From: Acaryochloris marina S15
Lineage (GTDB): Bacteria > Cyanobacteriota > Cyanobacteriia > Thermosynechococcales > Thermosynechococcaceae
Assembly: GCF_018336915.1 (NCBI RefSeq)
Contig: NZ_CP064923.1
Span: forward strand, 3,090,001-3,122,000
DNA: 32,000 nucleotides
Direction of reading: 5' to 3'
Positions within the stretch are counted from its first letter, which is position 1, and the number at the start of each line of letters is the position of its first letter. Positions 3,645-31,304 of the stretch are shown piece by piece. The translations under genes were made by a program, and so were the position numbers. The notes beneath the pieces were generated by a model that was not told the DNA's origin, made no database searches, and was given only the letters and a program-made list of their open reading frames with translations.

Positions 3645-3699
3645 GTAGAGCTGGACCAAAATAATCCTCAATAATCGTTCGCATCGCATTTCCTAAGGA

Positions 3700-3792
3700 A
3701 TTGCCCCTACAGCGGACCGAACCCTTCTGGTGGAATTCTAGGTATAGAGCTAATCTTTATCCACTCTTCGACAACAGCATATGGGATGAGAA
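3700..3792 (-). pseudogene. tRNA remnant (Ser-tRNA-derived variable arm/T-stem fragment)
   Basis: The RNA-sense sequence ...GGGTTCGGTCCGCTGTAGGGG parallels ACGGTTCGCTGTAGGGG of the adjacent tRNA-Ser. I could not build an acceptor stem, anticodon arm or T arm. Confidence 0.25.
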
Positions 3793-3875
3793 AGGAAGGT
3801 GGAGGAATCGAACCCCTACAGCGAACCGTACCCTGATTTTCAAGACCAGTTGCCGACCATTCGGCGGCACCTTCC
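3793..3875 (-). tRNA. tRNA-Ser(UGA)
   Basis: Acceptor GGAAGGT/ACCTTCC; anticodon stem CTGGT/ATCAG with loop CTTGAAA; long variable arm; T arm AGGGG-TTCGATT-CCTCC. CCA is not encoded. Confidence 0.8.
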
Positions 3876-3891
3876 ATAAAGCGTGAATTGG

Positions 3892-3966
3892 GGTGGCCGA
3901 CGGGACTTGAACCCGCTAACACTAGGATCACAACCTAGCTCCTCGTCCGCTTCGGATTCGGCCAAC
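3892..3966 (-). tRNA. tRNA-His(GUG)
   Basis: Anticodon stem CTAGG/CCTAG with loop TTGTGAT; T arm GCGGG-TTCAAGT-CCCGT; an extra 5' G opposite C73, as expected for His. Weak points are a 1:72 mismatch and a D stem of only 3 bp. Confidence 0.6.
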
Positions 3967-4062
3967 ACAGTGGATTCTGGTCGGATTTGTACGCATAGCG
4001 TCTCCGATAGGAGATACCGACATCTTTCTGCACAAGGCAGATGCTTTGCCAATTACATATAG
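3967..4062 (-). pseudogene. tRNA-like gene with T-loop module and degenerate 5' half
   Basis: Perfect T stem GTCGG/CCGAC enclosing TATCTCCTATCGGAGACGCTATGCG+TACAAAT. There is a possible anticodon hairpin TCTG-CCTTGTG-CAGA. I found no convincing acceptor pairing or D arm. Confidence 0.35.
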
Positions 4063-4135
4063 AAGGAGTGGTAGGATTTGAACCTACACAGACCGATTTA
4101 GAAGATCGGTGCCCCATCCTTTAGGCGACACTCCC
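4063..4135 (-). tRNA. tRNA-Arg(UCU)
   Basis: Acceptor GGGAGTG/CACTCCT (G1-U72); anticodon stem CCGAT/ATCGG with loop CTTCTAA; T arm GTAGG-TTCAAAT-CCTAC. Confidence 0.85.
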
Positions 4136-4140
4136 AGGTT

Positions 4141-4230
4141 TGGTAGGGGATCTGGGTTATGATCCCAGCCGTCTAGACTAATCTGGTCCCCTCGCTTATA
4201 AGGCGAAGCCGCTCACCAGAGCTATCCCCC
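4141..4230 (-). tRNA. atypical tRNA-like gene with UAU anticodon (Ile AUA reader), long extra arm, non-canonical T-loop
   Basis: Acceptor GGGGGAT/ATCCCCT followed by encoded ACCA; D stem GCTC/GAGC with a 4-nt loop; anticodon stem TTCGC/GCGAG with loop CTTATAA; extra arm of about 21 nt; T arm CTGGG-ATCATAA-CCCAG, which lacks TTC. Confidence 0.5.
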
Positions 4231-4235
4231 ACTGA

Positions 4236-4357
4236 TGGTCCCTGTAGGATTCGTACGCGAAGCAGCTCCGTTGACGAAGCCACCCCAAAGGGGCTTGGAG
4301 CTACCTATGGCCACCTTTTTGTAAGAAAGGCACTCTCCCAGGCTGAGTTACAGGACC
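4236..4357 (-). tRNA. tRNA-Val(UAC)-like with enlarged T-loop module
   Basis: 5' acceptor GGTCCTG; D stem ACTC/GAGT; anticodon stem CCTTT/AAAGG with loop CTTACAA. T stem (A)TAGG/CCTA(C) encloses TAGCTCC-[27-nt inner hairpin]-GGAGCTGCTTCGCG+TACGAAT. The 3' acceptor strand has one extra G. Confidence 0.55.
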
Positions 4358-4361
4358 ACAA

Positions 4362-4432
4362 AGCGAGTGGTGAGATTCGCACTCACGCGCTGGCGTTGGC
4401 ACTGCCAGATGCTACTGCTACATCACACTCGC
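4362..4432 (-). tRNA. tRNA-Gly(GCC)
   Basis: Perfect acceptor GCGAGTG/CACTCGC; D stem GATG/CATC; anticodon stem TGGC(A)/(C)GCCA with loop GTGCCAA; T arm GTGAG-TGCGAAT-CTCAC. Confidence 0.7.
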
Positions 4433-4436
4433 CCAA

Positions 4437-4517
4437 AGCGGATAACGAGATTTGTTCGCGAAGCGTCTCCTCACATCAAGAGTTTAGAAGCCTCTGATGC
4501 TGGCACACCATATCCGC
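4437..4517 (-). tRNA. tRNA-Arg(UCU)-like with short T-loop module
   Basis: Perfect acceptor GCGGATA/TATCCGC; anticodon stem AGAG/CTCT with loop CTTCTAA. T stem GTGAG/CTCGT (two G-U pairs) encloses GAGACGCTTCGCG+AACAAAT. The D arm is irregular. Confidence 0.5.
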
Positions 4518-4582
4518 AAAAGGTTTATATCCGTTAGGTTTTATGCACCTAAGTTATTTAGACCTCAATGATTTCGCACCTA

Positions 4583-5098
4583 TTAATTCGGCTGTTCAGC
4601 TATTTTTAAGTAGGTGTTATAAGTCAAGTCGCCAAAGCAGGCAAAGATAACTTTGGTCATAAATTGATTTTCCTGCAAGAAATTGAGGGTCGTTTCAAAG
4701 GCGATCTGACAGGCTTGGTCTATCGGATAGCCATAGACTCCGCAACTAATGGCAGGAAAGGCTATGGCTTGAATCCCATTGCCAACTGCTAACTCTAAGC
4801 TACGTTGATAGCAGGCTTGCAACAAAATCGCTTCATTGGCTCCCCCTCCTCGCCAAATAGGACCAACGGTGTGAATCACATACTTGGCTGGCAGTTGATA
4901 CCCTTTCGTGAGTTTGACATGGCCTGTTTTACAGCCTTTAAGCATTCGGCATTCTGCCAAAAGTTGTGGCCCGGCTGCGCGATGAATTGCTCCATCGACT
5001 CCACTCCCGCCAAGCAATGACTCATTAGCTGCATTGACAATCGCATCTACCTTAAGGGTTGTGATATCAGTTTGGACAATTTCGATTCGAGCATTCAT
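4583..5098 (-). CDS. macrodomain protein (YmdB / O-acetyl-ADP-ribose deacetylase-like)
   Basis: 171 aa with hallmark macrodomain motifs: [49 protein letters not shown]. It is embedded between tRNA genes on the same strand. Confidence 0.85.
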
Positions 5099-5163
5099 GG
5101 ATTAGCCCCTTAGGGAATTCCCTTGTGAGAAATATCATCATTCTGTACCTAAATAATGGAACA

Positions 5164-5260
5164 AGCTGGTGACAGGGGTTGTTCGCGAAGCGTCTCCGAA
5201 GGAGAAACCTGCAACCTATTGTTTACAAGACAATTGCTCTAGCCATTGAGCTGCACCAGC
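5164..5260 (-). tRNA. tRNA-Thr(UGU)-like with 24-nt T-loop module
   Basis: Perfect acceptor GCTGGTG/CACCAGC; D stem GCTC/GAGC; anticodon stem ATTGT/ACAAT with loop CTTGTAA. T stem GCAGG/CCTGT encloses TTTCTCCTTCGGAGACGCTTCGCG+AACAACC, a 31-nt loop. Confidence 0.65.
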
Positions 5261-5275
5261 TCAAGTTTTGGTATT

Positions 5276-5352
5276 TGGTAGCGGAGGTGAGAGTTGCACT
5301 CACGGATGTGCAGCTTATGAAACTGCCGAGCCCCTCTTGCTCCATCTCCGCT
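5276..5352 (-). tRNA. tRNA-Met/Ile2(CAU)
   Basis: Perfect acceptor AGCGGAG/CTCCGCT followed by encoded ACCA; anticodon stem GCAGT/GCTGC with loop TTCATAA; T arm GTGAG-TGCAACT-CTCAC. Confidence 0.7.
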
Positions 5353-5457
5353 ATGAGGGTTGGGATATTACATTGCTCTAGAGTGGTTGCCAATTTTGGA
5401 GTTGTTTTAGGAGGTGGAGGATGATTTGCGATCGCAAAACTCATACCTACCGTGAAC

Positions 5458-5880
5458 CTATACTCCTGGCATTTGAGCCAGATCTGGCTCCACCCAACAC
5501 TGTCTGGCTGCCTTCGACATCAACCGATCCTTCGAGTAGTAGATCAAGGGGAGATGGCGTTCACCCCACTCTTCTATCAAAGTCTCAGCTAGTTGATCGA
5601 TGGGCTGTGAGACATCATGCTGTTCAAGGAAATAAATAATCACTTTCAGATAAAATTGCGTGATGGTCTCGTGATAGCCCGAAGTCTCCGTGTTCACCAC
5701 ACCACACACAATGTTGTACCGTTGAATACACTCCCGAAGCAGATTTAACGCTGTTTGAGAGGAATAGTGCATCAGATGCCAGAGTCCTACCCGCAAATGA
5801 GCTTCATGAGTCCACGCTGATTTTGGTAACGTGCAATCACAAAATTCTTGGACGATTGTACTGGTGTTGGATTTGACCAT
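5458..5880 (-). CDS. hypothetical protein (140 aa from the ATG at 5880; the ORF track extends it to a TTG at 5907)
   Basis: ORF inside the tRNA operon. GGAAG lies 5 nt upstream of the ATG (MVKSNTS...). The sequence is His-rich (WTHEAHLRVGLWHLMHY, GYHETIT). I do not recognise a family. Confidence 0.55.
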   Translation of the reverse strand: MVKSNTSTIVQEFCDCTLPKSAWTHEAHLRVGLWHLMHYSSQTALNLLRECIQRYNIVCGVVNTETSGYHETITQFYLKVIIYFLEQHDVSQPIDQLAETLIEEWGERHLPLIYYSKDRLMSKAARQCWVEPDLAQMPGV

Positions 5881-5989
5881 TAGACTTCCATCTTGACTCG
5901 CAAGCAATCATGAGCTGGCTTTCACCCGGAAATTGAGGTTGGGAGGTGGCCAATGATCAACTCCCATAGGAGCGATAGTGACCACCTGC

Positions 5990-7291
5990 CTACTGAGCAA
6001 TGTCAGAGAAAGACAGGATGCGATCGCGAAACCAAGACTTCCCAGCATTAGTAACCGCTTTATTGACATCCTTCCAAGAAAGCTGTGCTGTTTCTAATTC
6101 AGCTTTGCTTTCTTTTTGGACATCCTGGGCCAGCCACTTCAGGAATCCACCCAACTGCTTCATATCTAATGGCCCTTGGCAACTCTCAGTTAACCCTTGC
6201 TCCAAGCGAGCGGGAGTCACCATCAACGCCACAAATTCATCAATACTCTTAACGAATTCAGGATCTAGTTGCACTGGCTGCTTAGTTTTGACCACCTGAT
6301 GTTTTTCGCCTTTGGCCTTAAACATCAGCTCAGGATAGGTCAGTCGATCCACCCGGGTTTGGCTTTGAGGATAGAGAACCAGTCCTTCCCCCAATCCTTC
6401 AATTCCGAAGGTCGCTTTAACCCAAGGGTCAATTTGCTCAACTTCAGACACAAACTGGTTGATAGAATTGGCGGCTGATTCCAATTGGTCTCGGTTGCCA
6501 AAATCCAAGGTCAATGGCTCACCCAAAAAAGGTAAGACAAAGATATCTGGATGGGATGGTAAAAGCTGGGAAATCGGAGCTGGATTAACCTCCAACTTAG
6601 CAACTTCATTTTCTACTCCGCCATACTGGATTGCAAACACCGTAAAGATTCTGCGATCAATTTGGGAAATAGAAGTCCGCTTTTGAATTCCCTGACCACA
6701 CCATTCTCCGAAGATCGTGATGTGCTCGTGATCTGCCAACGCAGTGAAGTAATCCATGTGTTGACTGACCCAGTGGGCAAATCCCATATTGTCATCGTCT
6801 GGTGTGATGATCTGGGAACGACTTTGAGCAGCCACTCGACCATCCGTGAAGATTTGCACCCCGGCATTGGTTCCATCCAGCTTGATTTTTGCTCGATAGG
6901 TCACCACCGGAGTGGCTTCCAACACTATTAAGCTGCGTCGAACATTATGCAGGAGTTCCACACTCGGCCATCGCTGCATTTGCACCGACTGGACAACGGA
7001 CTGTTGGCAATAGGTCTTGGATACATCTTGCCCCATTGGTAATTCAGTTTTACCCAGTGCCATTCCATAAGAGACGATGCCTCGCAATTTAGTTGCTTTG
7101 ATTTTGGTGCCGTCTTTGAGAACGGAATTTACTTGGGCAACCAAAACTAGATCACCGACCTCATAGGTTCGTTCCAAATTTGCAATTACCTGAGTAGGAG
7201 GAGATCCAGGGGATTGCATCGTATACACTTTGAGTGAGTCAGCATTCGGATGCTTCTCGACGTTTTTTACCTCCATTACAATCACAGTCAT
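5990..7291 (-). CDS. tRNA-binding OB domain fused to an Rnl2-type (PF09414-like) ATP-dependent RNA ligase
   Basis: The start is taken at ATG 7289-7291 with GGAG 7 nt upstream; the ORF-track extension to 7441 overlaps tRNA-Lys. The N-terminus VEKHPNADSLKVY...KLRGIVSYGMAL is a Trbp111/EMAP-type tRNA_bind domain. The nucleotidyltransferase motifs follow: KLDGTN (I), IFGEWCG.GIQ (III), GEGLVLY (IV), MFKAKGEKH (V). Confidence 0.8.
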   Translation of the reverse strand: MTVIVMEVKNVEKHPNADSLKVYTMQSPGSPPTQVIANLERTYEVGDLVLVAQVNSVLKDGTKIKATKLRGIVSYGMALGKTELPMGQDVSKTYCQQSVVQSVQMQRWPSVELLHNVRRSLIVLEATPVVTYRAKIKLDGTNAGVQIFTDGRVAAQSRSQIITPDDDNMGFAHWVSQHMDYFTALADHEHITIFGEWCGQGIQKRTSISQIDRRIFTVFAIQYGGVENEVAKLEVNPAPISQLLPSHPDIFVLPFLGEPLTLDFGNRDQLESAANSINQFVSEVEQIDPWVKATFGIEGLGEGLVLYPQSQTRVDRLTYPELMFKAKGEKHQVVKTKQPVQLDPEFVKSIDEFVALMVTPARLEQGLTESCQGPLDMKQLGGFLKWLAQDVQKESKAELETAQLSWKDVNKAVTNAGKSWFRDRILSFSDIAQ

Positions 7292-7371
7292 CACGTCACT
7301 CCTCAATTGGCTGACTAATATCAACGAAATCAATGCCAGATATTCTGGCTTTTTCACCCCAAATTGGATGA

Positions 7372-7444
7372 TGGGCTGTGTAGGCTTCGAACCTACGCGC
7401 TTCCGCTTAAGAGGCGGCTGCTCTGCCAGCTGAGCTAACAACCC
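7372..7444 (-). tRNA. tRNA-Lys(CUU)
   Basis: Acceptor GGGTTGT/ACAGCCC; D stem GCTC/GAGC; anticodon loop CTCTTAA; T arm GTAGG-TTCGAAG-CCTAC. Confidence 0.9.
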
Positions 7445-7543
7445 TGGTGGGCCGCCTAGGGGATATACGCGAAGCGGCTCCGAAGGAGCTACCTAGATCT
7501 ATCCGCTTAAAAGGCGGCTGCATATTCGCTCTGCCAACGGCCC
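7445..7543 (-). tRNA. tRNA-Lys(UUU)-like with 24-nt T-loop module
   Basis: Acceptor GGGCCGT/GCGGCCC followed by encoded ACCA; 3-bp D stem GCA/TGC; same anticodon stem as the neighbouring Lys(CUU), with loop CTTTTAA. Perfect T stem CTAGG/CCTAG encloses TAGCTCCTTCGGAGCCGCTTCGCG+TATATCC. It abuts the Lys(CUU) gene with no spacer. Confidence 0.65.
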
Positions 7544-7576
7544 ATTAGTCTTTTGAGCTATATCAGCTTCATAGTT

Positions 7577-7625
7577 CCCTAACAGATCAATGGAGAGGAA
7601 GGCCCCTCCATTGATCTGTTAGGGG
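7577..7625. repeat. long inter-tRNA hairpin (about 19-bp perfect stem)
   Basis: CCCTAACAGATCAATGGAG ... CTCCATTGATCTGTTAGGG around a GC-rich centre. Neither strand has a flanking U-tract. Confidence 0.8.
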
Positions 7626-7630
7626 CTCAG

Positions 7631-7704
7631 TCCGGGTGGCAGGATTTGAACCTGCGACATCCTGGTCCCAAACCAGGCGCGCTACCAAACTGCGCTACAC
7701 CCGG
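7631..7704 (-). tRNA. tRNA-Pro(UGG)
   Basis: Acceptor CCGGGTG/CACCCGG (C1-G72, typical of bacterial Pro); D stem GCGC/GCGC; anticodon stem CCTGG/CCAGG with loop TTTGGGA; T arm GCAGG-TTCAAAT-CCTGC. Confidence 0.9.
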
Positions 7705-7709
7705 ATATC

Positions 7710-7787
7710 TGGTACTCCCGACAGGAGTTGAACCTGCAAAAACTCTGTCTCTCAAACAGAGGCGTTTACCAATTTCGCCACGGGAGC
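7710..7787 (-). tRNA. tRNA-Leu(GAG), class-I architecture (no long variable arm)
   Basis: Acceptor GCTCCCG/CGGGAGT followed by encoded ACCA; Leu-type D arm TGGCGAAATTGGTAAACGCC; anticodon stem TCTGT/ACAGA with loop TTGAGAG; only 6 nt between the anticodon and T stems; T arm GCAGG-TTCAACT-CCTGT. Confidence 0.7.
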
Positions 7788-7791
7788 ACAA

Positions 7792-7865
<74 letters not shown>

Positions 7866-7917
7866 ATAAAAGGAATTTAGAGTTAGAAATTCAAAGATGA
7901 GTTCTTTAAATTTCTAG

Positions 7918-7991
7918 TACTCCTGGTGGGAATCGAACCCACAACCTCTAGTTTTTGAGACCAGTGCCTCTTCCAATTGGGCTACAGGAGT
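7918..7991 (-). tRNA. tRNA-Leu(CAA), class-I architecture
   Basis: Paralog of 7792-7865 with the same acceptor and T stem. Anticodon stem CTGGT/ACTAG with loop CTCAAAA; 5-nt variable region. Confidence 0.7.
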
Positions 7992-8057
7992 AAATTGAGA
8001 AATCAGGCAGGCCTGACAGGTTAACGGAAACAAGGGGTGAACTCACCCTATTCCCGA

Positions 8058-8131
8058 TACTCCTGGTGGGAGTCGAACCCACAACAAACTGTGTTTAAGA
8101 CAGTTGCGTCTGCCAATTGCGCCACAGGAGT
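8058..8131 (-). tRNA. tRNA-Leu(UAA), class-I architecture
   Basis: Same acceptor ACTCCTG/CAGGAGT; D arm TGGCGCAATTGGCAGACGCA (GCG/CGC stem, Leu-like); anticodon stem ACTGT/ACAGT with loop CTTAAAC; variable region TTGTT; T arm GTGGG-TTCGACT-CCCAC. Confidence 0.7.
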
Positions 8132-8187
8132 AGTAAAAGGAGGCGTGAATAGACCCAGGCGATAGGTTTTGTTTCAACGGCCTCCAA

Positions 8188-8259
8188 CTGTCCCACCAGG
8201 ATTCGAACCTAGAATTTCGCTGTCAAAGAGCGAAGTGTTGCCAGTTACACCACAGGACA
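8188..8259 (-). tRNA. tRNA-Gln(UUG)
   Basis: Acceptor TGTCCTG/TGGGACA (U1-A72) with G73; D stem GTGT/ACAC; anticodon stem TCGCT/AGCGA with loop CTTTGAC; T arm CTAGG-TTCGAAT-CCTGG. Confidence 0.85.
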
Positions 8260-8270
8260 ATAAAAGATAG

Positions 8271-8342
8271 ATGCCGAGGTAGGATTCGCACCTACACCCT
8301 CCTGATTCAGAGTCAGGCGACTTGCGATTCGTCCACTCGGCA
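8271..8342 (-). tRNA. tRNA-Gln(CUG)
   Basis: Perfect acceptor TGCCGAG/CTCGGCA (U1-A72); anticodon stem CCTGA/TCAGG with loop CTCTGAA; T arm GTAGG-TGCGAAT-CCTAC. Confidence 0.8.
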
Positions 8343-8348
8343 AAGAAT

Positions 8349-8424
8349 TGGCTGCCCCGGCAGGGATTGAACCTGCGACCGTTCGCTTAACAGGCGACCG
8401 CTACTACCACTGAGCTACAGGGCA
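8349..8424 (-). tRNA. tRNA-Asn(GUU)
   Basis: Acceptor TGCCCTG/CGGGGCA followed by encoded GCCA; anticodon stem GTCGC/GCGAA with loop CTGTTAA; T arm GCAGG-TTCAATC-CCTGC. Confidence 0.85.
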
Positions 8425-8431
8425 ACGACAG

Positions 8432-8553
8432 CTCCCCAGGTCGGTTTTGGTCGCGAAGCATCTCCGAATGAGAAACTGGCGACCTCCTGCACTAAGCCCT
8501 TCGGGTAGGCTGCGCCAACACACAGGCGCTACTACCTCTGAGCTACCGGGGGA
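8432..8553 (-). ncRNA. aberrant tRNA-like gene: 8-nt anticodon-position loop, long extra arm, T-loop module
   Basis: The 5' part TCCCCCGGTAGCTCAGAGGTAGTAGC is tRNA-like. Stem GCGCC/GGCGC closes the loop TGTGTGTT. An extra hairpin follows around CCCGAAGGG. The module TTTCTCATTCGGAGATGCTTCGCG+ACCAAAA is present, but the T-stem and acceptor registers are ambiguous. Confidence 0.4.
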
Positions 8554-8579
8554 CAAAACAACCGATGGGTTGTCTAAAG

Positions 8580-8653
8580 CGAGAACGGAAGGACTTGAAC
8601 CCTCAATCTTCAAGTTCGTAGCCTGAGATGTTATCCAGTTACACCACGTTCTC
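8580..8653 (-). tRNA. tRNA-Arg(ACG)
   Basis: Perfect acceptor GAGAACG/CGTTCTC; D stem GTGT/ACAT; anticodon stem TCAGG/CTTGA with loop CTACGAA; T arm GAGGG-TTCAAGT-CCTTC. Confidence 0.85.
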
Positions 8654-8657
8654 AAAA

Positions 8658-8743
8658 CGGAGAGGACAGGATTCGAACCTGCAACGGTCTTAAACCGTAC
8701 TCCCTTAGCAGGGGAGCGCTTTTCCCCACTCAGCCACCTCTCC
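8658..8743 (-). tRNA. tRNA-Ser(GCU)
   Basis: Perfect acceptor GGAGAGG/CCTCTCC; anticodon stem CTCCC/GGGAG with loop CTGCTAA; long variable arm TACGGTTTAAGACCGTT; T arm GCAGG-TTCGAAT-CCTGT. Confidence 0.9.
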
Positions 8744-8796
8744 AAAAGCTATTGCTGAGTGATAAGTACTACAAGCTGCCAACTTGTAATACAAAC

Positions 8797-8881
8797 TGGT
8801 AGTTCGGGCAGGAATTGAACCTGCAACACAATAAGCGGCTGCTTTACAGGCAGTTGCCCACACCAGTAGGCGAGCCGACCT
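8797..8881 (-). tRNA. tRNA-Tyr(GUA)
   Basis: Acceptor AGGTCGG/CCGAACT (one mismatch) followed by encoded ACCA; anticodon stem CTGC/GCAG with loop CTGTAAA; 13-nt variable arm (class II, as in bacterial Tyr); T arm GCAGG-TTCAATT-CCTGC. Confidence 0.75.
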
Positions 8882-8886
8882 ATGTT

Positions 8887-8963
8887 TGGGAGTGGCGACA
8901 GGATTTGAACCCGCAATCACCTGGGTGAAAACCAAGCTGCTTAAACCATTTGCATACGCCACT
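8887..8963 (-). tRNA. tRNA-Glu(UUC)
   Basis: Perfect acceptor AGTGGCG/CGCCACT followed by encoded CCCA; anticodon stem CTTGG/CCAGG with loop TTTTCAC; T arm GCGGG-TTCAAAT-CCTGT. Confidence 0.8.
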
Positions 8964-8970
8964 TTGGTAT

Positions 8971-8996
8971 TTGCCTGAACCGATGGATTCAGGCAA
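8971..8996. repeat. inter-tRNA hairpin (9-bp perfect stem)
   Basis: TTGCCTGAA-CCGATGGA-TTCAGGCAA, located between tRNA-Glu and tRNA-Trp. Confidence 0.75.
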
Positions 8997-9067
8997 CACG
9001 GAGACTAGGATTTGAACCTAGAACATCAGCTTTGGAGACTGAGGTGTTGCCATTACACCATCCCCGC
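8997..9067 (-). tRNA. tRNA-Trp(CCA)
   Basis: Acceptor GCGGGGA/TCTCCGT (two G-U pairs) with G73; D stem GTGT/ACAC; anticodon stem TCAGT/GCTGA with loop CTCCAAA; T arm CTAGG-TTCAAAT-CCTAG. Confidence 0.8.
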
Positions 9068-9072
9068 AAAGG

Positions 9073-9144
9073 TAGCAGTGACAGGACTCGAACCTGCATC
9101 TTCTCGGTTATGAGCCGAGTACCTTGCCGTTAGGTTACACTGCG
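9073..9144 (-). tRNA. tRNA-Met(CAU), possibly initiator-like (unpaired 1:72)
   Basis: The 5' end CGCAGTG pairs with CACTGCT leaving a C1/U72 mismatch. Anticodon stem CTCGG/CCGAG with loop CTCATAA; T arm GCAGG-TTCGAGT-CCTGT. Confidence 0.7.
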
Positions 9145-9149
9145 TCGTT

Positions 9150-9224
9150 TGGAGTCCAGGGTGGGAGTTAAACCCACGATTTCCGGCTTTGCAGACCGAC
9201 GCTTTATCCCTTAGCTACCTGGAC
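9150..9224 (-). tRNA. tRNA-Cys(GCA)
   Basis: Perfect acceptor GTCCAGG/CCTGGAC with U73 (a Cys identity element) and encoded CCA; anticodon loop CTGCAAA; T arm GTGGG-TTTAACT-CCCAC. Confidence 0.8.
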
Positions 9225-9227
9225 TTG

Positions 9228-9255
9228 TGGCCTATAGCGATTTGCTATTAGGCCA
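9228..9255. repeat. inter-tRNA hairpin (stem of about 11 bp)
   Basis: TGGCCTATAGC-GATTT-GCTATTAGGCCA, with one bulged T. Confidence 0.65.
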
Positions 9256-9262
9256 AATTCAG

Positions 9263-9336
9263 AAGTCTCGACGGGAGTTGCACCCGCTTCTCCTTGGCTG
9301 AGAACCAAAGCGACTTATCTAATCGTCCACGAGACT
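9263..9336 (-). tRNA. tRNA-Glu(CUC)
   Basis: Perfect acceptor AGTCTCG/CGAGACT; anticodon stem TTTGG/CCAAG with loop TTCTCAG; T arm GCGGG-TGCAACT-CCCGT. Confidence 0.75.
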
Positions 9337-9339
9337 ATA

Positions 9340-9414
9340 CGGGGGAGACGGGATTTGAACCCGCGACCTTTCGCTCGACAGGCGACTGCTCTAGACCCAC
9401 TGAGCTACACCCCC
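9340..9414 (-). tRNA. tRNA-Asp(GUC)
   Basis: Acceptor GGGGGTG/CTCCCCC (one mismatch) with G73; D stem GCTC/GAGC; anticodon stem GTCGC/GCGAA with loop CTGTCGA; T arm GCGGG-TTCAAAT-CCCGT. Confidence 0.85.
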
Positions 9415-9490
9415 AAATGTGGAAAATATTCAGTTTTCAAGGTTCAGAAGTTGATTGGCTGTAGTAGCTCGTTTCAACTGCATTACATTT

Positions 9491-9519
9491 ATACTACAAA
9501 TATACTACAGAAATGTCAA
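9491..9519 (-). promoter_or_regulatory. candidate sigma70-type promoter of the tRNA operon
   Basis: The minus strand reads TTGACA (9519-9514), a 17-nt spacer, then TAGTAT (9496-9491), about 75 nt upstream of the first tRNA (Asp). The -10 element is one of three direct TGTAGTAT repeats. Confidence 0.5.
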
Positions 9520-9615
9520 GGGCATACTACAAGTTTTTTTGACTTTCTTTTGAGCAATTAAGTTTGAGAGAGAGCAAACCCATAGAATGAGCTAAAATAC
9601 TCCCTCTCAAGGATC

Positions 9616-10005
9616 TTAATCGACAACTACCGTTGTTAGGGCCTGATCAGCAGCTTGCCAGAGACGACGAAGAATTAACTCCGTCTCATAGTCATAGGCG
9701 GCTAAGAACATCCCCTCATGAGCTTGGGCAGTCTGTGCCATCCAGGTCCCAGAAAGGTTAACTTCGACATATTCCGCATCCACACGAGCAATCTCTAGGG
9801 TTTTGTCATATTGGCGAAGTGCCGTTTCTAAAGCACCCAAACCAGGGGTCAACACTGGGAGTAGGAAAGAAGCCTGTCCCATTTCAATATGGAGGGTTAG
9901 GCCGGTACGGACGGTGAGAACAACATGGTGAGAAACAACGGTTTCTAAGGAATCCCCTACATATTCCATATGCAGTCCCAAGTCGGTATAGATCAGTTTC
10001 AGCAT
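9616..10005 (-). CDS. hypothetical protein (129 aa from MLKLIYTD)
   Basis: The longer ORF-track version (to 10113) overlaps the 3' end of the HNH gene. The internal ATG at 10005 gives a compact arrangement just downstream of the HNH stop. No family recognised. Confidence 0.5.
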   Translation of the reverse strand: MLKLIYTDLGLHMEYVGDSLETVVSHHVVLTVRTGLTLHIEMGQASFLLPVLTPGLGALETALRQYDKTLEIARVDAEYVEVNLSGTWMAQTAQAHEGMFLAAYDYETELILRRLWQAADQALTTVVVD

Positions 10006-10063: not shown

Positions 10064-10582
10064 TTAATGCATAGCGGTTTCTTGGCTTTTCCAAAACTGG
10101 TCTGCAAAGGCAACAGCCGGATGGATGGGGGCCTTGGGTTTGGTCTGCAAGGTCATCCCTGCCTGGGTTGGCGTTCGGTCGCTTTTTGAGGAGTTACAAG
10201 GCTCACAGGCAGCGACGACGTTGTCCCAGGTATGCAATCCACCCTTAGACCGGGGAATGACGTGATCCAAGGTGAGTCGGCGATGGCTACCGCAATATTG
10301 GCAGCGATGCTGATCTCGTTTAAGGACCTCGCGGCGGTTGACGGGAGGGATTTTCCACATCCGCCCTGGGTTCCCCATCAGCAGGCGGATATGCTCCGAT
10401 ACCTGCAAGACCTGATTGGGCGATCGCACTTCCCATACCTGGGTATTGCCAAAATCGAGAGACTCAGCTTGACCCGTTATCAGAAGAACAATGGCGCGCT
10501 TGATATTGATCCGGGCCAGGGGCAAGTAGGCTTTAGAAAAGACGACCACGGAGTTTTGGAGAATAGGCTGGATAACGGTCAT
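10064..10582 (-). CDS. HNH endonuclease
   Basis: 172 aa with the HNH core CQYCG....LTLDHVIPRSKGG..TWDNVVAACEPCNSSK. GAGGAG lies upstream of the ATG. Confidence 0.85.
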   Translation of the reverse strand: MTVIQPILQNSVVVFSKAYLPLARINIKRAIVLLITGQAESLDFGNTQVWEVRSPNQVLQVSEHIRLLMGNPGRMWKIPPVNRREVLKRDQHRCQYCGSHRRLTLDHVIPRSKGGLHTWDNVVAACEPCNSSKSDRTPTQAGMTLQTKPKAPIHPAVAFADQFWKSQETAMH

Positions 10583-10593
10583 GGATCACTCCT

Positions 10594-10634
10594 CAATAAA
10601 AGAACCCCCGCTCTGGGTGTCAGAGCGGGGGTTC
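10594..10634 (-). terminator. rho-independent terminator
   Basis: Perfect 14-bp stem GAACCCCCGCTCTG/CAGAGCGGGGGTTC with a 5-nt loop, followed on the minus strand by TTTTATT. It lies downstream of the 10660-10998 ORF. Confidence 0.75.
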
Positions 10635-21223: not shown

Positions 21224-23716
21224 TTAATTCTCAGTGAATTCAAAACCCGTATTAAAGTTTTCAACTCTTCCTTCTAGAATGGCAATCAAATCGTTACTCC
21301 CCGCTAAACGAAGGCTAGTTCGACTACCAAAAGTCATTAAAGTATAGTCTGCAGCACTGCCAGCGAGCTCAATCGTATCTTGATTGAGTTCAAACCGTTG
21401 AATAATTGCCAGACCCCGACCTTGGTAAAAGACAGAACGCTCATCTCCTAAGATAAAGACATCTTCGCCTCTACCTCCCTTTAAGAGGTCAAAGTCGTGT
21501 CGGCCAAACTGATCGCCAACACCATTAATGATGTCATTGCCGTTGCCACCTCTGACCATATCGTTGCCATTACCCGCAACTAATACATCGTTATCAGCAT
21601 ATCCAGTCAACACATCATTACCATCACCGCCAATAACGGTATCGTTACCCGCACCACCGATTAAGTAGTCATCCCCAAGATTACCGATCAGGATATCGGC
21701 CCCAAAATTCCCCCGGATGAAGTCATTGCCATCTAGTCCATCAATCAGATCATTCTGTCGAGTTCCCCGTAATGAGTTTTGGCCATCATCTCCCAAGATT
21801 TTGTTCTCATAGGGGACCTGGAATACATTATCTTGAACCAGATAATCTTGGGTCGTGTTCAGACGAATGATATTCGATAAATTTGTCTGGGTAATGTCTG
21901 CAGCGAGCACCTTTAATTCATCCAGATCATTCAAGAAGAAAAAGCGATCGCCAGCCGCTGCACGAGCGAATTGATCTTTGATGAAAAAGCTAAAGGTGGG
22001 TCCAAGCAAACCACCATGATTCGCCGACAACTCCGAAATACCCCCTAGCCATAAGTCGATCTGGCCCACATGTTTGTAGGCTGTCTCAAACAGCTCAATC
22101 ACAGCAGGGGCAAACGGCAACTCTTCAAAAGAGGTAATCTCAACACCAAATAGCTGTTTTTGAGCGTCAACATAACTGGGAAGACCCACTTCTCGACCCC
22201 GCTGAATATTGACAGATGCTAGGTCAAAGCCTCCTGTACCAGCGCCAAAAAGGAAGTTGCGGACGCCATCCACAATAAAGTTATCCAGTTCTTGAGCTTC
22301 TTGCAAAACTAGCCCTCGCAAAAGGGAATCAACCCCATTGGCCGACACTTCCCCAGGTTTAAAGAAGGCATCTTTAAGGGCAATCGACTCTAAACCGTTG
22401 TCATCAAAACGGTGGATTTGATTATTGAGTAGGGTATGGCCCAAACGATAAGCCGCATTCGCAAATTCATTACTAACGGCTGGATTGATATAGGGTTGAT
22501 ACCCCTCATAGTCATCGAGCAGGGTATCTCCAATCAGAAGCGGGAGAAACTCTTTATAGGTAATGATTTGGATCTTGGCCCCAATAACCTTACGAGCCGC
22601 TTGGTAAAGGTACTCATCCTTCACCTTATCTGCATGGGTTACTCCGTTCTGGTTGAGATACTCCCCTTTAAAGGATTGATATTGAGCGACGAGTCCCGAT
22701 TCGCCGGCCTCTAGTCGTTCTGAAATATCAGCGGCTAATCGATTATGTTCACGCACAAACAGAACATGATTGGCCGTGAGCCCAAGTTGTTCATTGGCAC
22801 GAACATCTCCTGCCAAGTAAAGGTCTGCATCCGCGATATTTTGTCCACCGTTAGCGTTGCCAAATGGGTGATCAGCACGATTGTATGGCAAGAGTTGTTC
22901 GCCATTCTCGGCAACAGTGGTTTTCAGCTCACCGTTTGCATAGGACCGAAGAAAGTTAGCTCGCTCTGCATCTGAACCGTACACTCCAGAACCATCAATA
23001 AATGAGGTAATCTCATTATTTTGCTCACGAGGATTATGTCGGTTAGTCCCTGTATCATGTGCAGCTGGCACACGAGTAAAAGGCAGATAAGGAAATTTCG
23101 GATTAAAGAGTGAATCAGACTTAGAAACAGGAATAAAAAAGGCTTCTTTTCCACCCTCGTTCAAATCTAGGTCGTGATCAATAAATTGTCCCCACTGCCA
23201 CAACCAATCACTCGCTCCCAAAAAATTAGGAATCGACTCAGTTTGGCTAGCAACTGTATTGCTTATCTCTCTCGGATTAGGTAACCCAGCTGGATCTGGA
23301 ATGCTATAGGAGCCACCATGTGGAGAGTCAATCATGATCGCCCCCCCTCGAGGAGTACTCACACCATCATCATAAGCAGGGGTTAATAGTCTTAAAAGCT
23401 GAGTATCACTCGAACCCGCATGGTGATGGTATGGATTATTGCCTGTTCCGTCAATTGAGCGATATTGAAACAACGAGTTCGTATTGCCTGGAACGGTACC
23501 TTCCTCTTGATCTATATCCAATATTCGAGAGCCATAGAGTGGTGTAGCGGTCAACTCTAAATAAGTAGGCTCCATTTCGTTATCGTTCATTTGACCTGAA
23601 GAAGACGTATCGTCTAGAACGGTACCTTCCTCTTGATCTATATCCAATATTCGAGAGCCATAGAGTGGAGTGGCGGTCGACTCTATATCATTGGGTACCA
23701 TTTCATTATCGTTCAT
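21224..23716 (-). CDS. animal-haem-peroxidase-family protein with C-terminal RTX (hemolysin-type Ca-binding) repeats
   Basis: 830 aa. Peroxidase blocks: WGQFIDHDL, FIDGSGVYGS, LLPYN, GD.RANEQ..LT..H.LF.REHNRLA, AAYRLGHTLL. The C-terminus carries GxxGxD nonapeptide repeats (GNDFIRGNFGADILIGNLGDDYLIGGAGNDTVIGGDGNDVLTG...). Confidence 0.88.
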   Translation of the reverse strand: MNDNEMVPNDIESTATPLYGSRILDIDQEEGTVLDDTSSSGQMNDNEMEPTYLELTATPLYGSRILDIDQEEGTVPGNTNSLFQYRSIDGTGNNPYHHHAGSSDTQLLRLLTPAYDDGVSTPRGGAIMIDSPHGGSYSIPDPAGLPNPREISNTVASQTESIPNFLGASDWLWQWGQFIDHDLDLNEGGKEAFFIPVSKSDSLFNPKFPYLPFTRVPAAHDTGTNRHNPREQNNEITSFIDGSGVYGSDAERANFLRSYANGELKTTVAENGEQLLPYNRADHPFGNANGGQNIADADLYLAGDVRANEQLGLTANHVLFVREHNRLAADISERLEAGESGLVAQYQSFKGEYLNQNGVTHADKVKDEYLYQAARKVIGAKIQIITYKEFLPLLIGDTLLDDYEGYQPYINPAVSNEFANAAYRLGHTLLNNQIHRFDDNGLESIALKDAFFKPGEVSANGVDSLLRGLVLQEAQELDNFIVDGVRNFLFGAGTGGFDLASVNIQRGREVGLPSYVDAQKQLFGVEITSFEELPFAPAVIELFETAYKHVGQIDLWLGGISELSANHGGLLGPTFSFFIKDQFARAAAGDRFFFLNDLDELKVLAADITQTNLSNIIRLNTTQDYLVQDNVFQVPYENKILGDDGQNSLRGTRQNDLIDGLDGNDFIRGNFGADILIGNLGDDYLIGGAGNDTVIGGDGNDVLTGYADNDVLVAGNGNDMVRGGNGNDIINGVGDQFGRHDFDLLKGGRGEDVFILGDERSVFYQGRGLAIIQRFELNQDTIELAGSAADYTLMTFGSRTSLRLAGSNDLIAILEGRVENFNTGFEFTEN
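23491..23716 (-). repeat. 126-bp-period tandem duplication at the 5' end of the peroxidase gene
   Basis: 23491-23590 and 23617-23716 are near-identical. They encode MNDNEM.P....TATPLYGSRILDIDQEEGTV twice, and each copy begins with ATG. Confidence 0.9.
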
Positions 23717-27459: not shown

Positions 27460-27879
27460 TTAGGATTCCTGGGTTTCGGGATATGAAGGTGCTTCAGCTC
27501 CAGAGCCATCTTCTAGTTCATTGATGTGTCGATAGAACTTTTGAAGATAGCTGAGATCACAGGCAAACAGTCCTTCAACAACATTGGGGCTGATGGAGTC
27601 TAGGGCCCCTAAACGCGTGATCACCCGAGACAGAATAATGACCGTCGCATAGGCCGGATTGGCTTTTACCCGCGGATCACGCATCGGTACAATCTCATCC
27701 ATCGCCCTGGACAAGCGCATGATGCCCTTGCGATGCAAATTCCCAGCCGTATCGAGATATCCTTTGGGCAACTCAAACTCAAACTCTATTTGCACCGAAC
27801 CCAAAACTGTCTGAGATTCTGTTACCGGTCCAGGGACCTCAGGGGGAGGTGATAGCCCTAAATTATTACTCAGTTGCAT
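27460..27879 (-). CDS. small CIS-associated protein, paralog A (tail-assembly-chaperone-like?)
   Basis: 139 aa. Its start codon lies 1 nt from the preceding stop. See paralog B for the shared pattern. Confidence 0.55.
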   Translation of the reverse strand: MQLSNNLGLSPPPEVPGPVTESQTVLGSVQIEFEFELPKGYLDTAGNLHRKGIMRLSRAMDEIVPMRDPRVKANPAYATVIILSRVITRLGALDSISPNVVEGLFACDLSYLQKFYRHINELEDGSGAEAPSYPETQES

Positions 27880-27880
27880 A

Positions 27881-28375
27881 TTACGCCGTGACCTCTACTC
27901 GCTTAACGGATTCAACCGTAATCTCCACCTCTTCGATGTTATGGTCTCCACTTTTGACATCTAGATCAGAAATTTTGTAGCTGACGGGCCAGGCTCCTTG
28001 AAATTCCAATCGACACTGTTCTTTCGCAGCTTGGTTATAAATCACCAATGCACCTTCCCGGCGCTGCTCAGCCCAGTCTCCTTCTTGCACCTTTTGTAAC
28101 CAATTCCACAAAGTCATTGAAGACATCAAACCCCGCTTTAAGGTGAGGTTAGAGTAGGTGGCATTGCCAGGAATCTTGGTGCGGATGTTGCGACCTTTGG
28201 TTTTTCCCTGTTTCCCCCAGAGTTGTGGGGTCACCTCTACCACTTCAATCACGTCCTGGGAAGCTTGAAACCCGCTACATTCCATAAATATTCCATCAAC
28301 TGAATCTTGGCTTCCTTCCAGTTTCAGTTCTAGATAGAATCTTGACCGTGTGAGGATTTCTGGTAGATCGGGCAT
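27881..28375 (-). CDS. phage-tail-tube-like protein (CIS tube paralog 3)
   Basis: 164 aa. The N-terminal RSRFYLELKLEG...CSGF block is typical of the gp19/Afp1-5 tube family. It lies next to two other tube genes. Confidence 0.7.
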   Translation of the reverse strand: MPDLPEILTRSRFYLELKLEGSQDSVDGIFMECSGFQASQDVIEVVEVTPQLWGKQGKTKGRNIRTKIPGNATYSNLTLKRGLMSSMTLWNWLQKVQEGDWAEQRREGALVIYNQAAKEQCRLEFQGAWPVSYKISDLDVKSGDHNIEEVEITVESVKRVEVTA

Positions 28376-28410
28376 TAGAGCGGTTCACCCTAGTGAAATG
28401 TGCACAAAAT

Positions 28411-28893
28411 TTAGACTTTCCGGATGACCTGAGTGAAGTACAGATCAATATTGTCTTCTGCTAGTTGTCCACCACTATCCACTGACAGACTTCCCACCTG
28501 CTTTTTCGCCCCTGGGAACAGGTCGGTAAAATTAAAGCGCATGGCTTCTTTGCCATCTGGGTTATAAATGACTAAAGACCCCGTTTTACGGCCTTCCATC
28601 GCTTTAGAGCCTCCCCCAGAAAAGGTATCTGGGTGACAATCGTCGTACCAATCCGAAAGCTTCTTTTGTTCTCCCTCATTGCCTGCAACATAGGTGAGGG
28701 CAATAGTGCTGTTGTATTTAACTCCACCAATCGTCGCTTGAGTCTGGGTTTTAGCATCTTTGGTGACTCCAATAGCTGAATCGCCCCCCGCAACTTCCAG
28801 TTCAATTTCAGGACCACTGATTGATTTAAGGGTCAAAGAAGTTACCCCATCTATCTCAAAATAAAACTTGGAATTGGCTAGATACTGAACCAT
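28411..28893 (-). CDS. phage-tail-tube-like protein (CIS tube paralog 2)
   Basis: 160 aa: NSKFYFEIDGV..LTLKSISG...GSLVIYN..G.E..RFNF. Confidence 0.75.
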   Translation of the reverse strand: MVQYLANSKFYFEIDGVTSLTLKSISGPEIELEVAGGDSAIGVTKDAKTQTQATIGGVKYNSTIALTYVAGNEGEQKKLSDWYDDCHPDTFSGGGSKAMEGRKTGSLVIYNPDGKEAMRFNFTDLFPGAKKQVGSLSVDSGGQLAEDNIDLYFTQVIRKV

Positions 28894-28960
28894 TTTGGGT
28901 CTCCGAATTTATCCCTGATCATTACACTGTTGTGCTGGATCCAATGAGAAGCAATCAGCA

Positions 28961-29461: not shown

Positions 29462-29563
29462 AGATATGCTCCTTGTTCAGTGATCGATGAAATAGACGAT
29501 CAGCAATCCCGATAGATATGCTGAGAGGCAGAAAGAGGCAATCCCCTTCCTGCCTAAAAGAGT

Positions 29564-31264: not shown

Positions 31265-31304
31265 TGACTAGCTTCCTCCATTCGTTACGGGGTAAAGACT
31301 TGAA

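Follow-up and report, generated by a model that had tools for sequence, protein, structure and literature searches.

A tRNA array of Acaryochloris marina with an embedded RNA ligase gene and a mini-repeat in tRNA T-loops

The trn operon of Anabaena (Nostoc) sp. PCC 7120, a dense same-strand array of tRNA genes on plasmid delta that is repressed by TrcR, stays silent as long as growth is normal and is switched on by translation inhibitors; it provides 23 aminoacylated tRNAs and aids survival (PMC8421152). Arrays of this kind, termed L-arrays, spread horizontally, the neighbourhoods of L-operons are enriched in genes for RNA processing and translation, and a combination of tRNA supply and repair has already been proposed for RtcB with operonic tRNAs (PMC8421152). 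In phages, too, the theme of own tRNAs accompanied by Rnl or RtcB ligases and by Macro or NADAR domains has been described (PMC7824862, PMC9503650). Here we analyse a 32-kb stretch of Acaryochloris marina S15 (contig NZ_CP064923.1, positions 3,090,001 to 3,122,000; hereafter the window), in which an array of tRNA genes encloses genes for an RNA ligase, a 140-aa protein and a macrodomain protein. The A. marina MBIC11017 array is listed in the Figure 6 legend of PMC8421152, a neighbourhood comparison, and PMC4758250 counts it among the four original cyanobacterial arrays of Puerto-Galan and Vioque (2012). We conclude, with moderate confidence, that the locus is an Acaryochloris L-array, or trn operon, under TrcR-type control, with the ligase as a tRNA-resealing passenger, the macrodomain protein as an accessory, and tRNA genes disrupted by a mini-repeat.

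Kinship with the Anabaena trn operon

The array spans 3664-9531 of the window on the minus strand and holds 31 tRNA-derived genes, 24 intact and 7 damaged. At about 5.8 kb, including 2.2 kb of coding sequence, it has the density that marks an L-array (20 or more tRNA genes on one strand, with over 2 per kb). ARAGORN called 22 tRNA genes, all on the minus strand at 3891-9415 and none elsewhere in the window, while the Rfam tRNA model (RF00005) recognised 21 genes at its gathering score, Gly(GCC) at 4362-4432 being extra over ARAGORN; the 24 intact genes are the 22 of ARAGORN plus two added by Rfam. Below the gathering score Rfam also matched a Ser(UGA)-like gene (3794-3875), a full-length but insert-bearing tRNA-Val (4236-4357, 122 nt) and part of a tRNA-Thr (5198-5252). 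The seven damaged genes, which these tools miss or half-detect, were resolved by reading the strand and by alignment to a relative. A preliminary description of this DNA had counted 23 reasonably canonical genes, 7 aberrant ones and one remnant, in essence the total given here. Its coverage of 18 amino acids is reached only when the insert-bearing Thr and Val genes are included, the intact genes alone serving 16. It had also found no Ala or Phe gene; no intact one exists, but both persist in the window as wrecked genes. In MBIC11017 the corresponding Phe(GAA) gene is canonical, and the Ala(UGC) gene is complete although it bears an insert.

A near-consensus promoter, also part of that description, lies at the upstream end of the array (9491-9531, minus strand, by sequence scan), with TTGACA at 9519-9514, a 17-nt spacer and TAGTAT at 9496-9491. 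Three exact copies of TGTAGTAT occupy the promoter region (9524-9531, 9502-9509 and 9491-9498), the last of them covering the TAGTAT -10 box, and they are the only exact copies in the whole window, where 0.44 would be expected by chance. At the trn promoter of Anabaena PCC 7120, the DNase footprint of TrcR is TGTAGTAT overlapping the TAGTAT -10 box (PMC10272220), and the same repeats moved into another promoter gave stress-regulated expression (PMC8421152). The boxes are identically spaced in the MBIC11017 array (locus L002), similar ones lie upstream of arrays L003, L053 (Anabaena), L055 and others, and with one mismatch allowed they were found upstream of 11 of the 16 arrays examined, Anabaena among them. 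The gaps of 66-109 nt between genes of the array held no convincing promoter or terminator.

Gene order points the same way. Orders derived with ARAGORN for the window and for loci L002, L003, L053, L054, L055, L009, L011 and L021 have a core in common, Asp-Glu-(Cys-Met-Trp)-Glu-Tyr-Ser-Arg-Phe-Asn-Gln-Gln-Leu/Pro-Lys-Met-Thr-Gly-Val-Arg-Ala-His, which the window thus shares with Anabaena and seven other arrays. Upstream of the promoter, on the same strand, lie a gene of the alr0857 family (9616-10005; NCBIfam NF045647, 140 bits against a cut-off of 75) and a gene for a 172-aa HNH endonuclease (10064-10582; PF01844 and PF14279, E = 9e-15). An HNH gene is conserved upstream of L-operons (PMC8421152); it precedes the arrays in L002, L003 and L021 and is annotated in Anabaena L053, and in the Anabaena trcR mutant the pair alr0856 (HNH) and alr0857 is derepressed (PMC10272220). 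A strong intrinsic terminator (10602-10634; 14-bp stem and T-run) ends 20 nt before the HNH start codon.

The array of A. marina MBIC11017 (NC_009925, 284-306 kb) is orthologous to that of the window and collinear with it at about 86% identity, with the same ligase (88% amino acid identity), 140-aa protein, macrodomain protein, promoter and HNH pair. The two differ in that mini-repeat insertions in Thr, Val and Phe genes and an extra tRNA-Met are found in the window only, and in two stretches of about 1.1 kb each that the window lacks, one separating Lys from the ligase and the other upstream of the promoter. Together, the TGTAGTAT box at the -10, the gene order, the HNH/alr0857 pair and the collinearity with MBIC11017 lead to the conclusion that the locus is a member of a known and experimentally studied kind. 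The likeness to the Anabaena trn operon extends to the dense same-strand array, the operator over the TAGTAT box, the upstream HNH gene, short-arm tRNAs with Leu anticodons and pseudogenes among the genes. In contrast, the Anabaena array is plasmid-borne, whereas the MBIC11017 orthologue of this locus is chromosomal; it has no embedded protein genes, no ligase of the window's family and, in our scans, no T-loop inserts. The ligase associated with it is RtcB, which is encoded elsewhere and has the opposite end chemistry to the window ligase.

The array-embedded RNA ligase

Three protein genes lie within the array on its own strand, at 5990-7291, 5458-5880 and 4583-5098, as originally reported. 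The first encodes a ligase of 433 aa, identified by its Pfam domains, an AlphaFold2 model and a fold search with that model. It combines a tRNA_bind domain (PF01588, 39.6 bits, gathering 27) with an RNA_ligase domain (PF09414, 49.3 bits), in a layout of an OB domain at about residues 1-95, an Rnl2-like nucleotidyltransferase core at about 125-345 and a predicted helical C-terminal domain at about 350-432. All catalytic motifs of Rnl2 (I, III, IV and V) are present: K137 of motif I (KLDGTN) aligns to K35 of T4 Rnl2, motif III FGEW (E196) to FGEF, and motif V KAK (K325/K327) to KCK, and K137, E196, E302-G303, K325 and K327 are invariant in 35 homologues. The fusion of a Trbp111-type tRNA-binding domain to an Rnl2-type ligase, proposed in the preliminary description, therefore stands.

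By sequence alone the match to T4 Rnl2 is marginal (E = 0.006). The model (mean predicted local distance difference test score 87.5) found NgrRnl, an Rnl5 enzyme, and full-length T4 Rnl2 as its best matches (E = 6e-12 and 1.6e-10), the match to full-length Rnl2 (2hvq) covering 360 columns with a TM-score of only 0.34-0.46; helices occupy residues 350-432 of the model, and Rnl2 needs a helical C-terminal domain for nick sealing. The OB domain aligns to the N-terminal domain of PheRS-beta (E = 7e-8). It also aligns to PDB 3bu2, a putative tRNA-binding protein whose fold it follows with a root mean square deviation of 1.5 A, and it has a sub-threshold NCBIfam match to YtpR. With T4 Rnl2 and the Rnl5 ligases (Naegleria NgrRnl, Deinococcus DraRnl) the protein has the PF09414 domain and motifs I, III, IV and V in common, and its top fold matches are among them. 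According to the model it would join the appendages of both, the OB-type domain that Rnl5 has at its N-terminus and the helical domain that Rnl2 has at its C-terminus, but its N-terminal domain differs in being of the Trbp111/PheT tRNA_bind type. It scores far below the curated equivalogs for Rnl2 (TIGR02307, 28 bits against 197) and Rnl5 (DRB0094, TIGR02306, 21 against 151), and we therefore place it in a distinct subfamily.

Relatives of the ligase were sought in one genome per species, which gave 43 loci, 21 cyanobacterial and 22 non-cyanobacterial. The ligase lies inside a same-strand tRNA array in 16 of the 21 cyanobacterial loci; these arrays hold 17 to 40 ARAGORN tRNAs on long contigs and 3 to 6 in three short or cut loci. 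The array-embedded ligases are 54-96% identical as proteins and occupy varying positions, always on the array strand. No same-strand array surrounds the ligase in any of the 22 non-cyanobacterial loci. In one of them, from a deltaproteobacterial metagenome-assembled genome, six tandem tRNA-Ser genes on the opposite strand (L017 8534-9182) lie beside a full-length homologue with both tRNA_bind and ligase domains. Clustering the neighbours of the non-cyanobacterial homologues was swamped by antisense open reading frames of high GC content, and no conserved partner emerged.

On viral contigs, 210 relatives were found. Among the best 80, five have a tRNA_bind fusion (L056-L060) and 19 lie within 8 kb of tRNA genes, which in every case share the strand of the ligase, with up to 14 around it. 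Together with the 16 cyanobacterial arrays, this co-location indicates that the link between ligase and tRNA genes is real and recurrent, as the preliminary description had anticipated in calling for a search of other genomes. The phage modules of tRNA supply and repair (T4 Pnkp/Rnl1; jumbo-phage tRNAs with Rnl1, Rnl2 or RtcB, KptA, 2H, Macro and NADAR; PMC7824862, PMC9503650) resemble the locus in setting tRNA genes beside an ATP-dependent RNA ligase and an ADP-ribose domain. They differ from it in that the operon described here is cellular and chromosomal and has a predicted host stress repressor, and no kinase/phosphatase, KptA or 2H protein was found in the window.

The tRNA genes and the T-loop mini-repeat

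The intact genes, all on the minus strand and called by both ARAGORN and Rfam unless stated otherwise, run from the promoter as Asp(GUC) 9339-9415, Glu(CUC) 9262-9336 (ARAGORN), Cys(GCA) 9150-9224, Met(CAU) 9071-9144 (by alignment not in the MBIC11017 array), Trp(CCA) 8996-9068, Glu(UUC) 8887-8963, Tyr(GUA) 8797-8881 (Rfam 30.6 bits), Ser(GCU) 8657-8744, Arg(ACG) 8579-8653, Asn(GUU) 8349-8424, Gln(CUG) 8270-8342 and Gln(UUG) 8187-8260. Four genes with the Leu anticodons UAA (8056-8132, 77 nt), CAA (7917-7991), UAG (7791-7866) and GAG (7710-7787) follow; these are mutual paralogues of 75-78 nt and 77-91% identity, each with a short variable arm. Beyond Pro(UGG) at 7630-7704 (Rfam 72 bits), strand reading revealed an inverted repeat with a stem of about 19 bp (7577-7625), located between the Pro and Lys genes. 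It is conserved in MBIC11017, where changes in one arm are matched by changes in the other; a U-tract is lacking, and the repeat may divide the array as a site of processing or pausing.

Lys(CUU) at 7372-7444 precedes the ligase gene, and Met(CAU) at 5276-5352 (Rfam 32.4 bits) lies among the protein genes. Past these come Gly(GCC) at 4362-4432, which has 42.4 bits in Rfam and an orthologue in L002 that ARAGORN calls Gly(GCC), a 90-nt tRNA-like gene with the Ile anticodon UAU (4141-4230), Arg(UCU) 4062-4135, His(GUG) 3891-3964 and the Ser(UGA)-like gene at 3794-3875. The Ile(UAU) gene, called by ARAGORN only and identical in MBIC11017, has a long extra arm and a non-canonical T-loop; its identity and charging, like those of the tRNAs with Leu anticodons, are uncertain. 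The Ser(UGA)-like gene combines an acceptor stem of 8 bp with a long variable arm and scores 39.1 bits on the Rfam tRNA-Sec model, below the gathering score of 47; the same element also trails the arrays in L002, L006, L009 and L021.

All seven damaged genes carry copies of one mini-repeat. Its motif GGAGnnGCU(U/A)(C/U)GCG occurs seven times in the array (5182-5205, 7467-7490, 4255-4302, 8450-8473, 3991-4015, 4454-4470 and 3677-3693) and not once in the other 26 kb of the window. The unit is a 24-nt hairpin, (T)TCTCCTTCGGAGACGCTTCGCGAA, inserted between T-loop positions 55 and 56. In tRNA-Thr(UGU) (5164-5260) exactly 24 nt, TCTCCTTCGGAGACGCTTCGCGAA, are inserted there, at 5182-5205. The tRNA-Val(UAC) gene (4236-4357; Rfam 28.1 bits over the full model) bears a 48-nt variant at the same site, 4255-4302, with an AGCUCC/GGAGCU stem and an enlarged loop. 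In a wrecked tRNA-Phe gene (8433-8552, without an ARAGORN or Rfam call) a mini-repeat of about 24 nt lies in the T-loop at about 8450-8473 (motif match 8449-8465). These three inserts are specific to the window, the MBIC11017 orthologues being canonical by alignment (Thr, L002 12021-12095, insert-free; Val, L002 12899-12975; Phe(GAA), L002 7362-7435). The anticodon loop of the Phe gene holds a second, unrelated insertion of 24 nt at 8495-8518 (about TTGGCGCAGCCTACCCGAAGGGCT), which is not in MBIC11017 and may represent another family of mini-elements.

The remaining four inserts are common to MBIC11017, and each of the genes that carry them shows further damage. The Lys(UUU)-like gene (7448-7543, insert 7467-7490, from strand reading; L002 8656-8755) has lost the GG of its D-loop. 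A degenerate, Arg-like gene with a UCU anticodon-like loop (4437-4517), called by neither program, has a shortened element and a poor cloverleaf. The tRNA-Ala(UGC) remnant (3972-4056, insert at about 3991-4015, from motif match and alignment) has deletions of 10 nt and 2 nt relative to the MBIC11017 copy, which scores 32.1 bits as a tRNA (L002 13153-13249). At the array end only a 3' stump of a Ser-like tRNA is left, with a diverged copy of the element (3664-3735, from strand reading, motif and alignment). In L003, the Lys(UUU) gene at the same position is canonical but the Cys gene bears an insert, and the gains were therefore independent.

When metagenomes were scanned for the core of the element, at least 120 loci were retrieved, many of them expected by chance. 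The full hairpin unit was present in 36 of the 120 loci listed, in at least four kinds of context. Among these listed loci were three other arrays with the unit at exactly this place in a T-loop (e.g. GGGTT-unit-CGACTCC in L236), a copy nested in a different T-loop insert (L170), and sites outside tRNA genes, namely tandem repeats of the heptamer CAAAACT, another hairpin repeat and tandem copies. Copies outside the window are found in L236, L189, L207, L170, L192, L161 and others. Since the insert also occurs outside tRNA genes and is present or absent at orthologous sites, we conclude that it is a dispersed mobile repeat of very small size.

Very small mobile dispersed repeats (SDRs) of Nostocaceae were reportedly described by Elhai et al. 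in 2008 (Genome Res 18:1484), and we take the present element to resemble them. We know of no report of T-loop targeting. SDR-like features of the mini-repeat are its hairpin unit of 24 nt, in the range of 21-27, its spread over unrelated contexts and its variable presence at orthologous sites, and it looks like a very small mobile element of SDR type with a preference for T-loops. SDRs have been reported only in Nostocaceae (PMC5861425), and the mini-repeat is found here in Acaryochloris. On the simplest reading, the aberrant tRNA genes are disruptions: the array is redundant, the insertions are therefore tolerated, and the genes that are hit decay. The insert-bearing genes would then be non-functional.

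Several other leads were not retained. A loose motif scan across all loci was too noisy in GC-rich loci, and a structural regular expression for T-loop inserts gave 24 matches against 17 on the control strand, so that only individually inspected matches were used. A hairpin formed by GCUUCGCG, or pairing of this sequence with the T-stem, was abandoned because minimum free energy folds were inconsistent between copies, and in the long tRNA-Arg of Kovacikia (L054 9036-9132) the insert lies in the variable arm. A tRNA-like gene with an acceptor stem, a T-arm and a divergent core occurs in Anabaena (L053 3596-3679; 31.9 bits on the Rfam tmRNA model) and in Kovacikia (L054 8270-8375), the latter with a T-loop insert of another type (AGCCTTCGGCAAGCAAGC).

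Accessory genes and interpretation of the locus

The macrodomain gene (4583-5098, minus strand) is as first described. It encodes a MacroD/YmdB-type protein of 171 aa (PF01661, E = 1e-46, 158 bits) that passes the curated model NF001664 for O-acetyl-ADP-ribose deacetylase (221 bits against a cut-off of 200), a class assigned by sequence. In other arrays, genes for unrelated ADP-ribose enzymes lie on the array strand: NADAR genes just after the ligase in L007 (12295-12876), L011 (11779-12228) and L012 (11704-12153), and genes for a microbial-type PARG in L008 (6880-7752) and L011 (8402-9244). The occurrence of Macro, NADAR and PARG in equivalent contexts looks like non-orthologous replacement and suggests that the module recurrently needs ADP-ribose to be removed, be it from a by-product, from RNA or from protein. 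Macro and NADAR domains are associated with RNA repair (PMC9503650, PMC7824862), which this pattern fits. The remaining protein gene (5458-5880, minus strand) encodes an all-alpha protein of 140 aa that belongs to no Pfam or NCBIfam family. It has 463 homologues and the invariant residues H25-x-x-H28, Y69-H70 and D133, and its AlphaFold2 model (score 95.8) matched no fold in the PDB at E <= 0.001; model and residues suggest an uncharacterised family of metal-binding enzymes. Relatives lie near arrays in L001, L002, L006 and L009.

The sister arrays contain further genes that bear on translation or RNA. A spare EF-Tu gene (409 aa) is present in L007, L009, L011 and L012, a PIN toxin with a 72-aa partner (VapBC-like) in L004-L013, an RNase T-like exonuclease in L006, L008 and L009, a GNAT acetyltransferase in L006, L009 and L013, and a RibD_C-like protein in eight loci. 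The sister arrays thus behave as translation-stress islands with variable cargo. Additionally, they enclose a 58-75 nt mimic of the GTPase-associated centre of 23S rRNA (the L11/thiostrepton-binding domain), scoring 47-55 bits at large-subunit positions of about 1081-1156 in Rfam. It was located at L006 94-132, L008 9787-9825, L009 9826-9864, L013 9821-9859, L007 11718-11756, L011 11488-11526, L012 11443-11481, L005 4678-4716 and L054 15885-15923. In ligase-bearing arrays the mimic lies within roughly 150-450 nt of the ligase gene, except in L005, where it follows some 1.1 kb downstream; the Kovacikia array, which has no ligase, contains it too, while the window and Acaryochloris lack it. It might act as a decoy or in regulation, and no mention of 23S or L11 was found in PMC8421152. 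Two other features of the window are unrelated to the array, a minus-strand cluster for a contractile injection system at 27460-31865 (Pvc16_N, tail sheath and three gp19-type tube proteins) and a protein with an animal haem peroxidase domain and RTX repeats at 21224-23716.

The reading that we prefer, an L-array under TrcR-type control with a resealing ligase, joins the anatomy, homology, conserved linkage and insert presence or absence observed above to a course of events modelled on Anabaena. Transcription would start near 9484 from the TTGACA-17-TAGTAT promoter, and the ribbon-helix-helix repressor TrcR would act at the three operator boxes, of which one covers the -10. If the operon behaves as in Anabaena PCC 7120, it would stay off while growth is normal, and impaired translation would lead to derepression and a supernumerary pool of tRNAs. 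The ligase, as a conserved passenger of arrays, probably docks on tRNA through its Trbp111/EMAP-type OB domain; judging from the enzymology of its family, the docked, ATP-dependent enzyme would reseal breaks with 3'-OH and 5'-phosphate ends, and it may fill the role proposed for RtcB in arrays that lack RtcB. The macrodomain protein would be a lineage-specific accessory, in whose place NADAR or PARG genes stand in other arrays, and the insert-bearing tRNAs would be hosts of a hairpin repeat at T-loop position 55/56 and not dedicated substrates.

A number of points weigh against this proposal. TrcR repression, stress induction and a single transcript are extrapolated from Anabaena, and we infer the substrates of the enzymes. 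No TGTAGTAT box lies ahead of the HNH gene here, and its regulation may therefore differ from that of Anabaena all8564. The ligase occurs without an array in 5 cyanobacterial loci and in all 22 non-cyanobacterial ones, and no ligase of its family was found in the plasmid arrays of Nostocales and Kovacikia. Among the array loci compared, the macrodomain gene is array-linked in Acaryochloris only, and relatives of the 140-aa protein are otherwise found mostly in unrelated contexts with no common theme. Metal-independent anticodon nucleases leave ends that such a ligase cannot join, and among the open reading frames of the 32-kb window there is no RtcB, Pnkp, kinase/phosphatase, 2H or Tpt1/KptA protein. 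PIN/VapC toxins of the sister arrays were dropped as a source of ligase-ready ends because VapC cleavage reportedly yields 5'-OH ends (PMC6459853). The ends produced by known tRNA-cleaving toxins are mostly unusable for the chemistry of the ligase, which is a weak point of the proposal. The suggestion of the preliminary description that supply and repair form one module thus holds for the array and the ligase, which travel together in 16 of 21 loci, but not for the macrodomain, whose link to arrays is restricted to Acaryochloris. The role proposed for it in processing ADP-ribose-1''-phosphate from a Tpt1 step lost its footing as well, since the partners Tpt1/KptA, 2H, Pnkp and RtcB were not found in the window.

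Many of these observations would also suit the view that the three protein genes are hitch-hiking cargo of a known L-array, the ligase being merely a common item with no functional tie to the tRNAs. Its premise is that arrays spread horizontally and pick up HNH genes, toxin-antitoxin pairs and acetyltransferases, and cargo does vary greatly between arrays; the array-free ligases, the arrays without a ligase (Anabaena, Calothrix and Kovacikia), the Acaryochloris-only macrodomain and the scattered relatives of the 140-aa protein all agree with it. Mere cargo, however, would hardly be expected to stay on the array strand in 16 cyanobacterial loci at 54-96% identity while its position varies, to bear a tRNA-binding domain, or to have phage relatives that also lie among tRNA genes. 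Furthermore, the cargo is biased to translation and RNA functions (EF-Tu, PIN, RNase T and ADP-ribose hydrolases), as in PMC8421152, and we regard the cargo explanation as unlikely. A different view draws on the abundant viral relatives, which are sometimes fused to tRNA_bind and lie within tRNA clusters, and sees in the module a means of defence or counter-defence, of phage-like ancestry, against tRNA-targeting nucleases of phages or competitors and not against general translational stress. Phage tRNAs combined with RNA ligases and Macro or NADAR domains are an established counter-defence theme (PMC7824862, PMC9503650), and L-arrays spread horizontally (PMC8421152). The promoter with its TrcR operator nevertheless places the operon in a host translational-stress regulon, the surroundings are chromosomal and include PriA and two-component genes, no prophage genes border the array, and no end-healing enzyme for the products of anticodon nucleases was found in the window. 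Thus we think a primary role in defence rather improbable.

Finally, the ligase could reseal tRNAs after the T-loop inserts are excised at the RNA level, which would amount to protein-only tRNA splicing in bacteria. Cuts leaving 3'-OH and 5'-phosphate ends might be made by the HNH protein or by a host RNase such as RNase III, which the YmdB-like macrodomain protein would modulate, and Rnl2 chemistry suits the ends left by metal-dependent nucleases; the insert hairpins, though, are far too short for RNase III. The T-loop inserts are all found at one part of the loop, adjoining positions 54-56, their stems differ while pairing is kept (UCUCC/GGAGA against AGCUCC/GGAGCU), removal of 24 nt from the Thr gene restores a T-loop of 7 nt, and every ligase-bearing array examined closely has at least one insert-bearing tRNA. 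The 24-mer is, however, dispersed in contexts other than tRNA (in heptamer repeats, in further repeats with a hairpin and as tandem copies). The four genes whose inserts MBIC11017 has as well have all suffered additional lesions (a deletion in the D-arm, a shortened element, no GG in the D-loop), and the Phe gene has received two insertions. In Kovacikia a T-loop insert is present in an array that lacks the ligase, no endonuclease candidate tracks the inserts, Anabaena having the HNH gene but no inserts, and none of the partners of yeast- or plant-type splicing or of healing and sealing (endonuclease, 5'-kinase with cyclic phosphodiesterase, Tpt1/KptA) was found among the window's open reading frames. 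The dispersal of the insert outside tRNA genes and the greater decay of the older insert-bearing genes likewise weaken the preliminary suggestion that the ligase processes these tRNAs. We consider splicing highly improbable, and there is just as slim a chance that the insert-bearing tRNAs are functional, with a mobile, intron-like RNA of 24 nt excised, the halves held together by acceptor and T stems and the ends rejoined by the array ligase. In a milder form, the ligase and the interchangeable Macro, NADAR and PARG proteins might act in an undescribed, ADP-ribose-linked mending of tRNA.

The preliminary description was not aware of any account of this gene combination, but the locus belongs to the cyanobacterial L-arrays or trn operons (PMC8421152, PMC10272220) and the phage theme is in print. 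The kind of array, its regulator and the A. marina orthologue are already published, and the array itself adds little. In the literature searched, we found no description of the array-embedded OB-Rnl2 ligase subfamily, of the Macro/NADAR/PARG swap, of the T-loop-targeting mini-repeat or of the 23S GTPase-centre mimic beside the ligase. The mini-repeat lands precisely in T-loops, and two Acaryochloris genomes provide before-and-after pairs, a rare handle on the movement of tiny elements. Were the splicing explanation true, protein-catalysed bacterial tRNA splicing would be coupled to a self-spreading mini-element. The presence of three unrelated families of ADP-ribose hydrolases in equivalent places of arrays points to an ADP-ribose step in responding to translational stress. 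Lastly, a ligase subfamily that sets an Rnl2-like core between a tRNA_bind OB domain and a predicted helical C-terminal domain is embedded in most of the cyanobacterial L-arrays examined, and it would be a natural candidate for the tRNA-mending activity that has so far been given, speculatively, only to RtcB.

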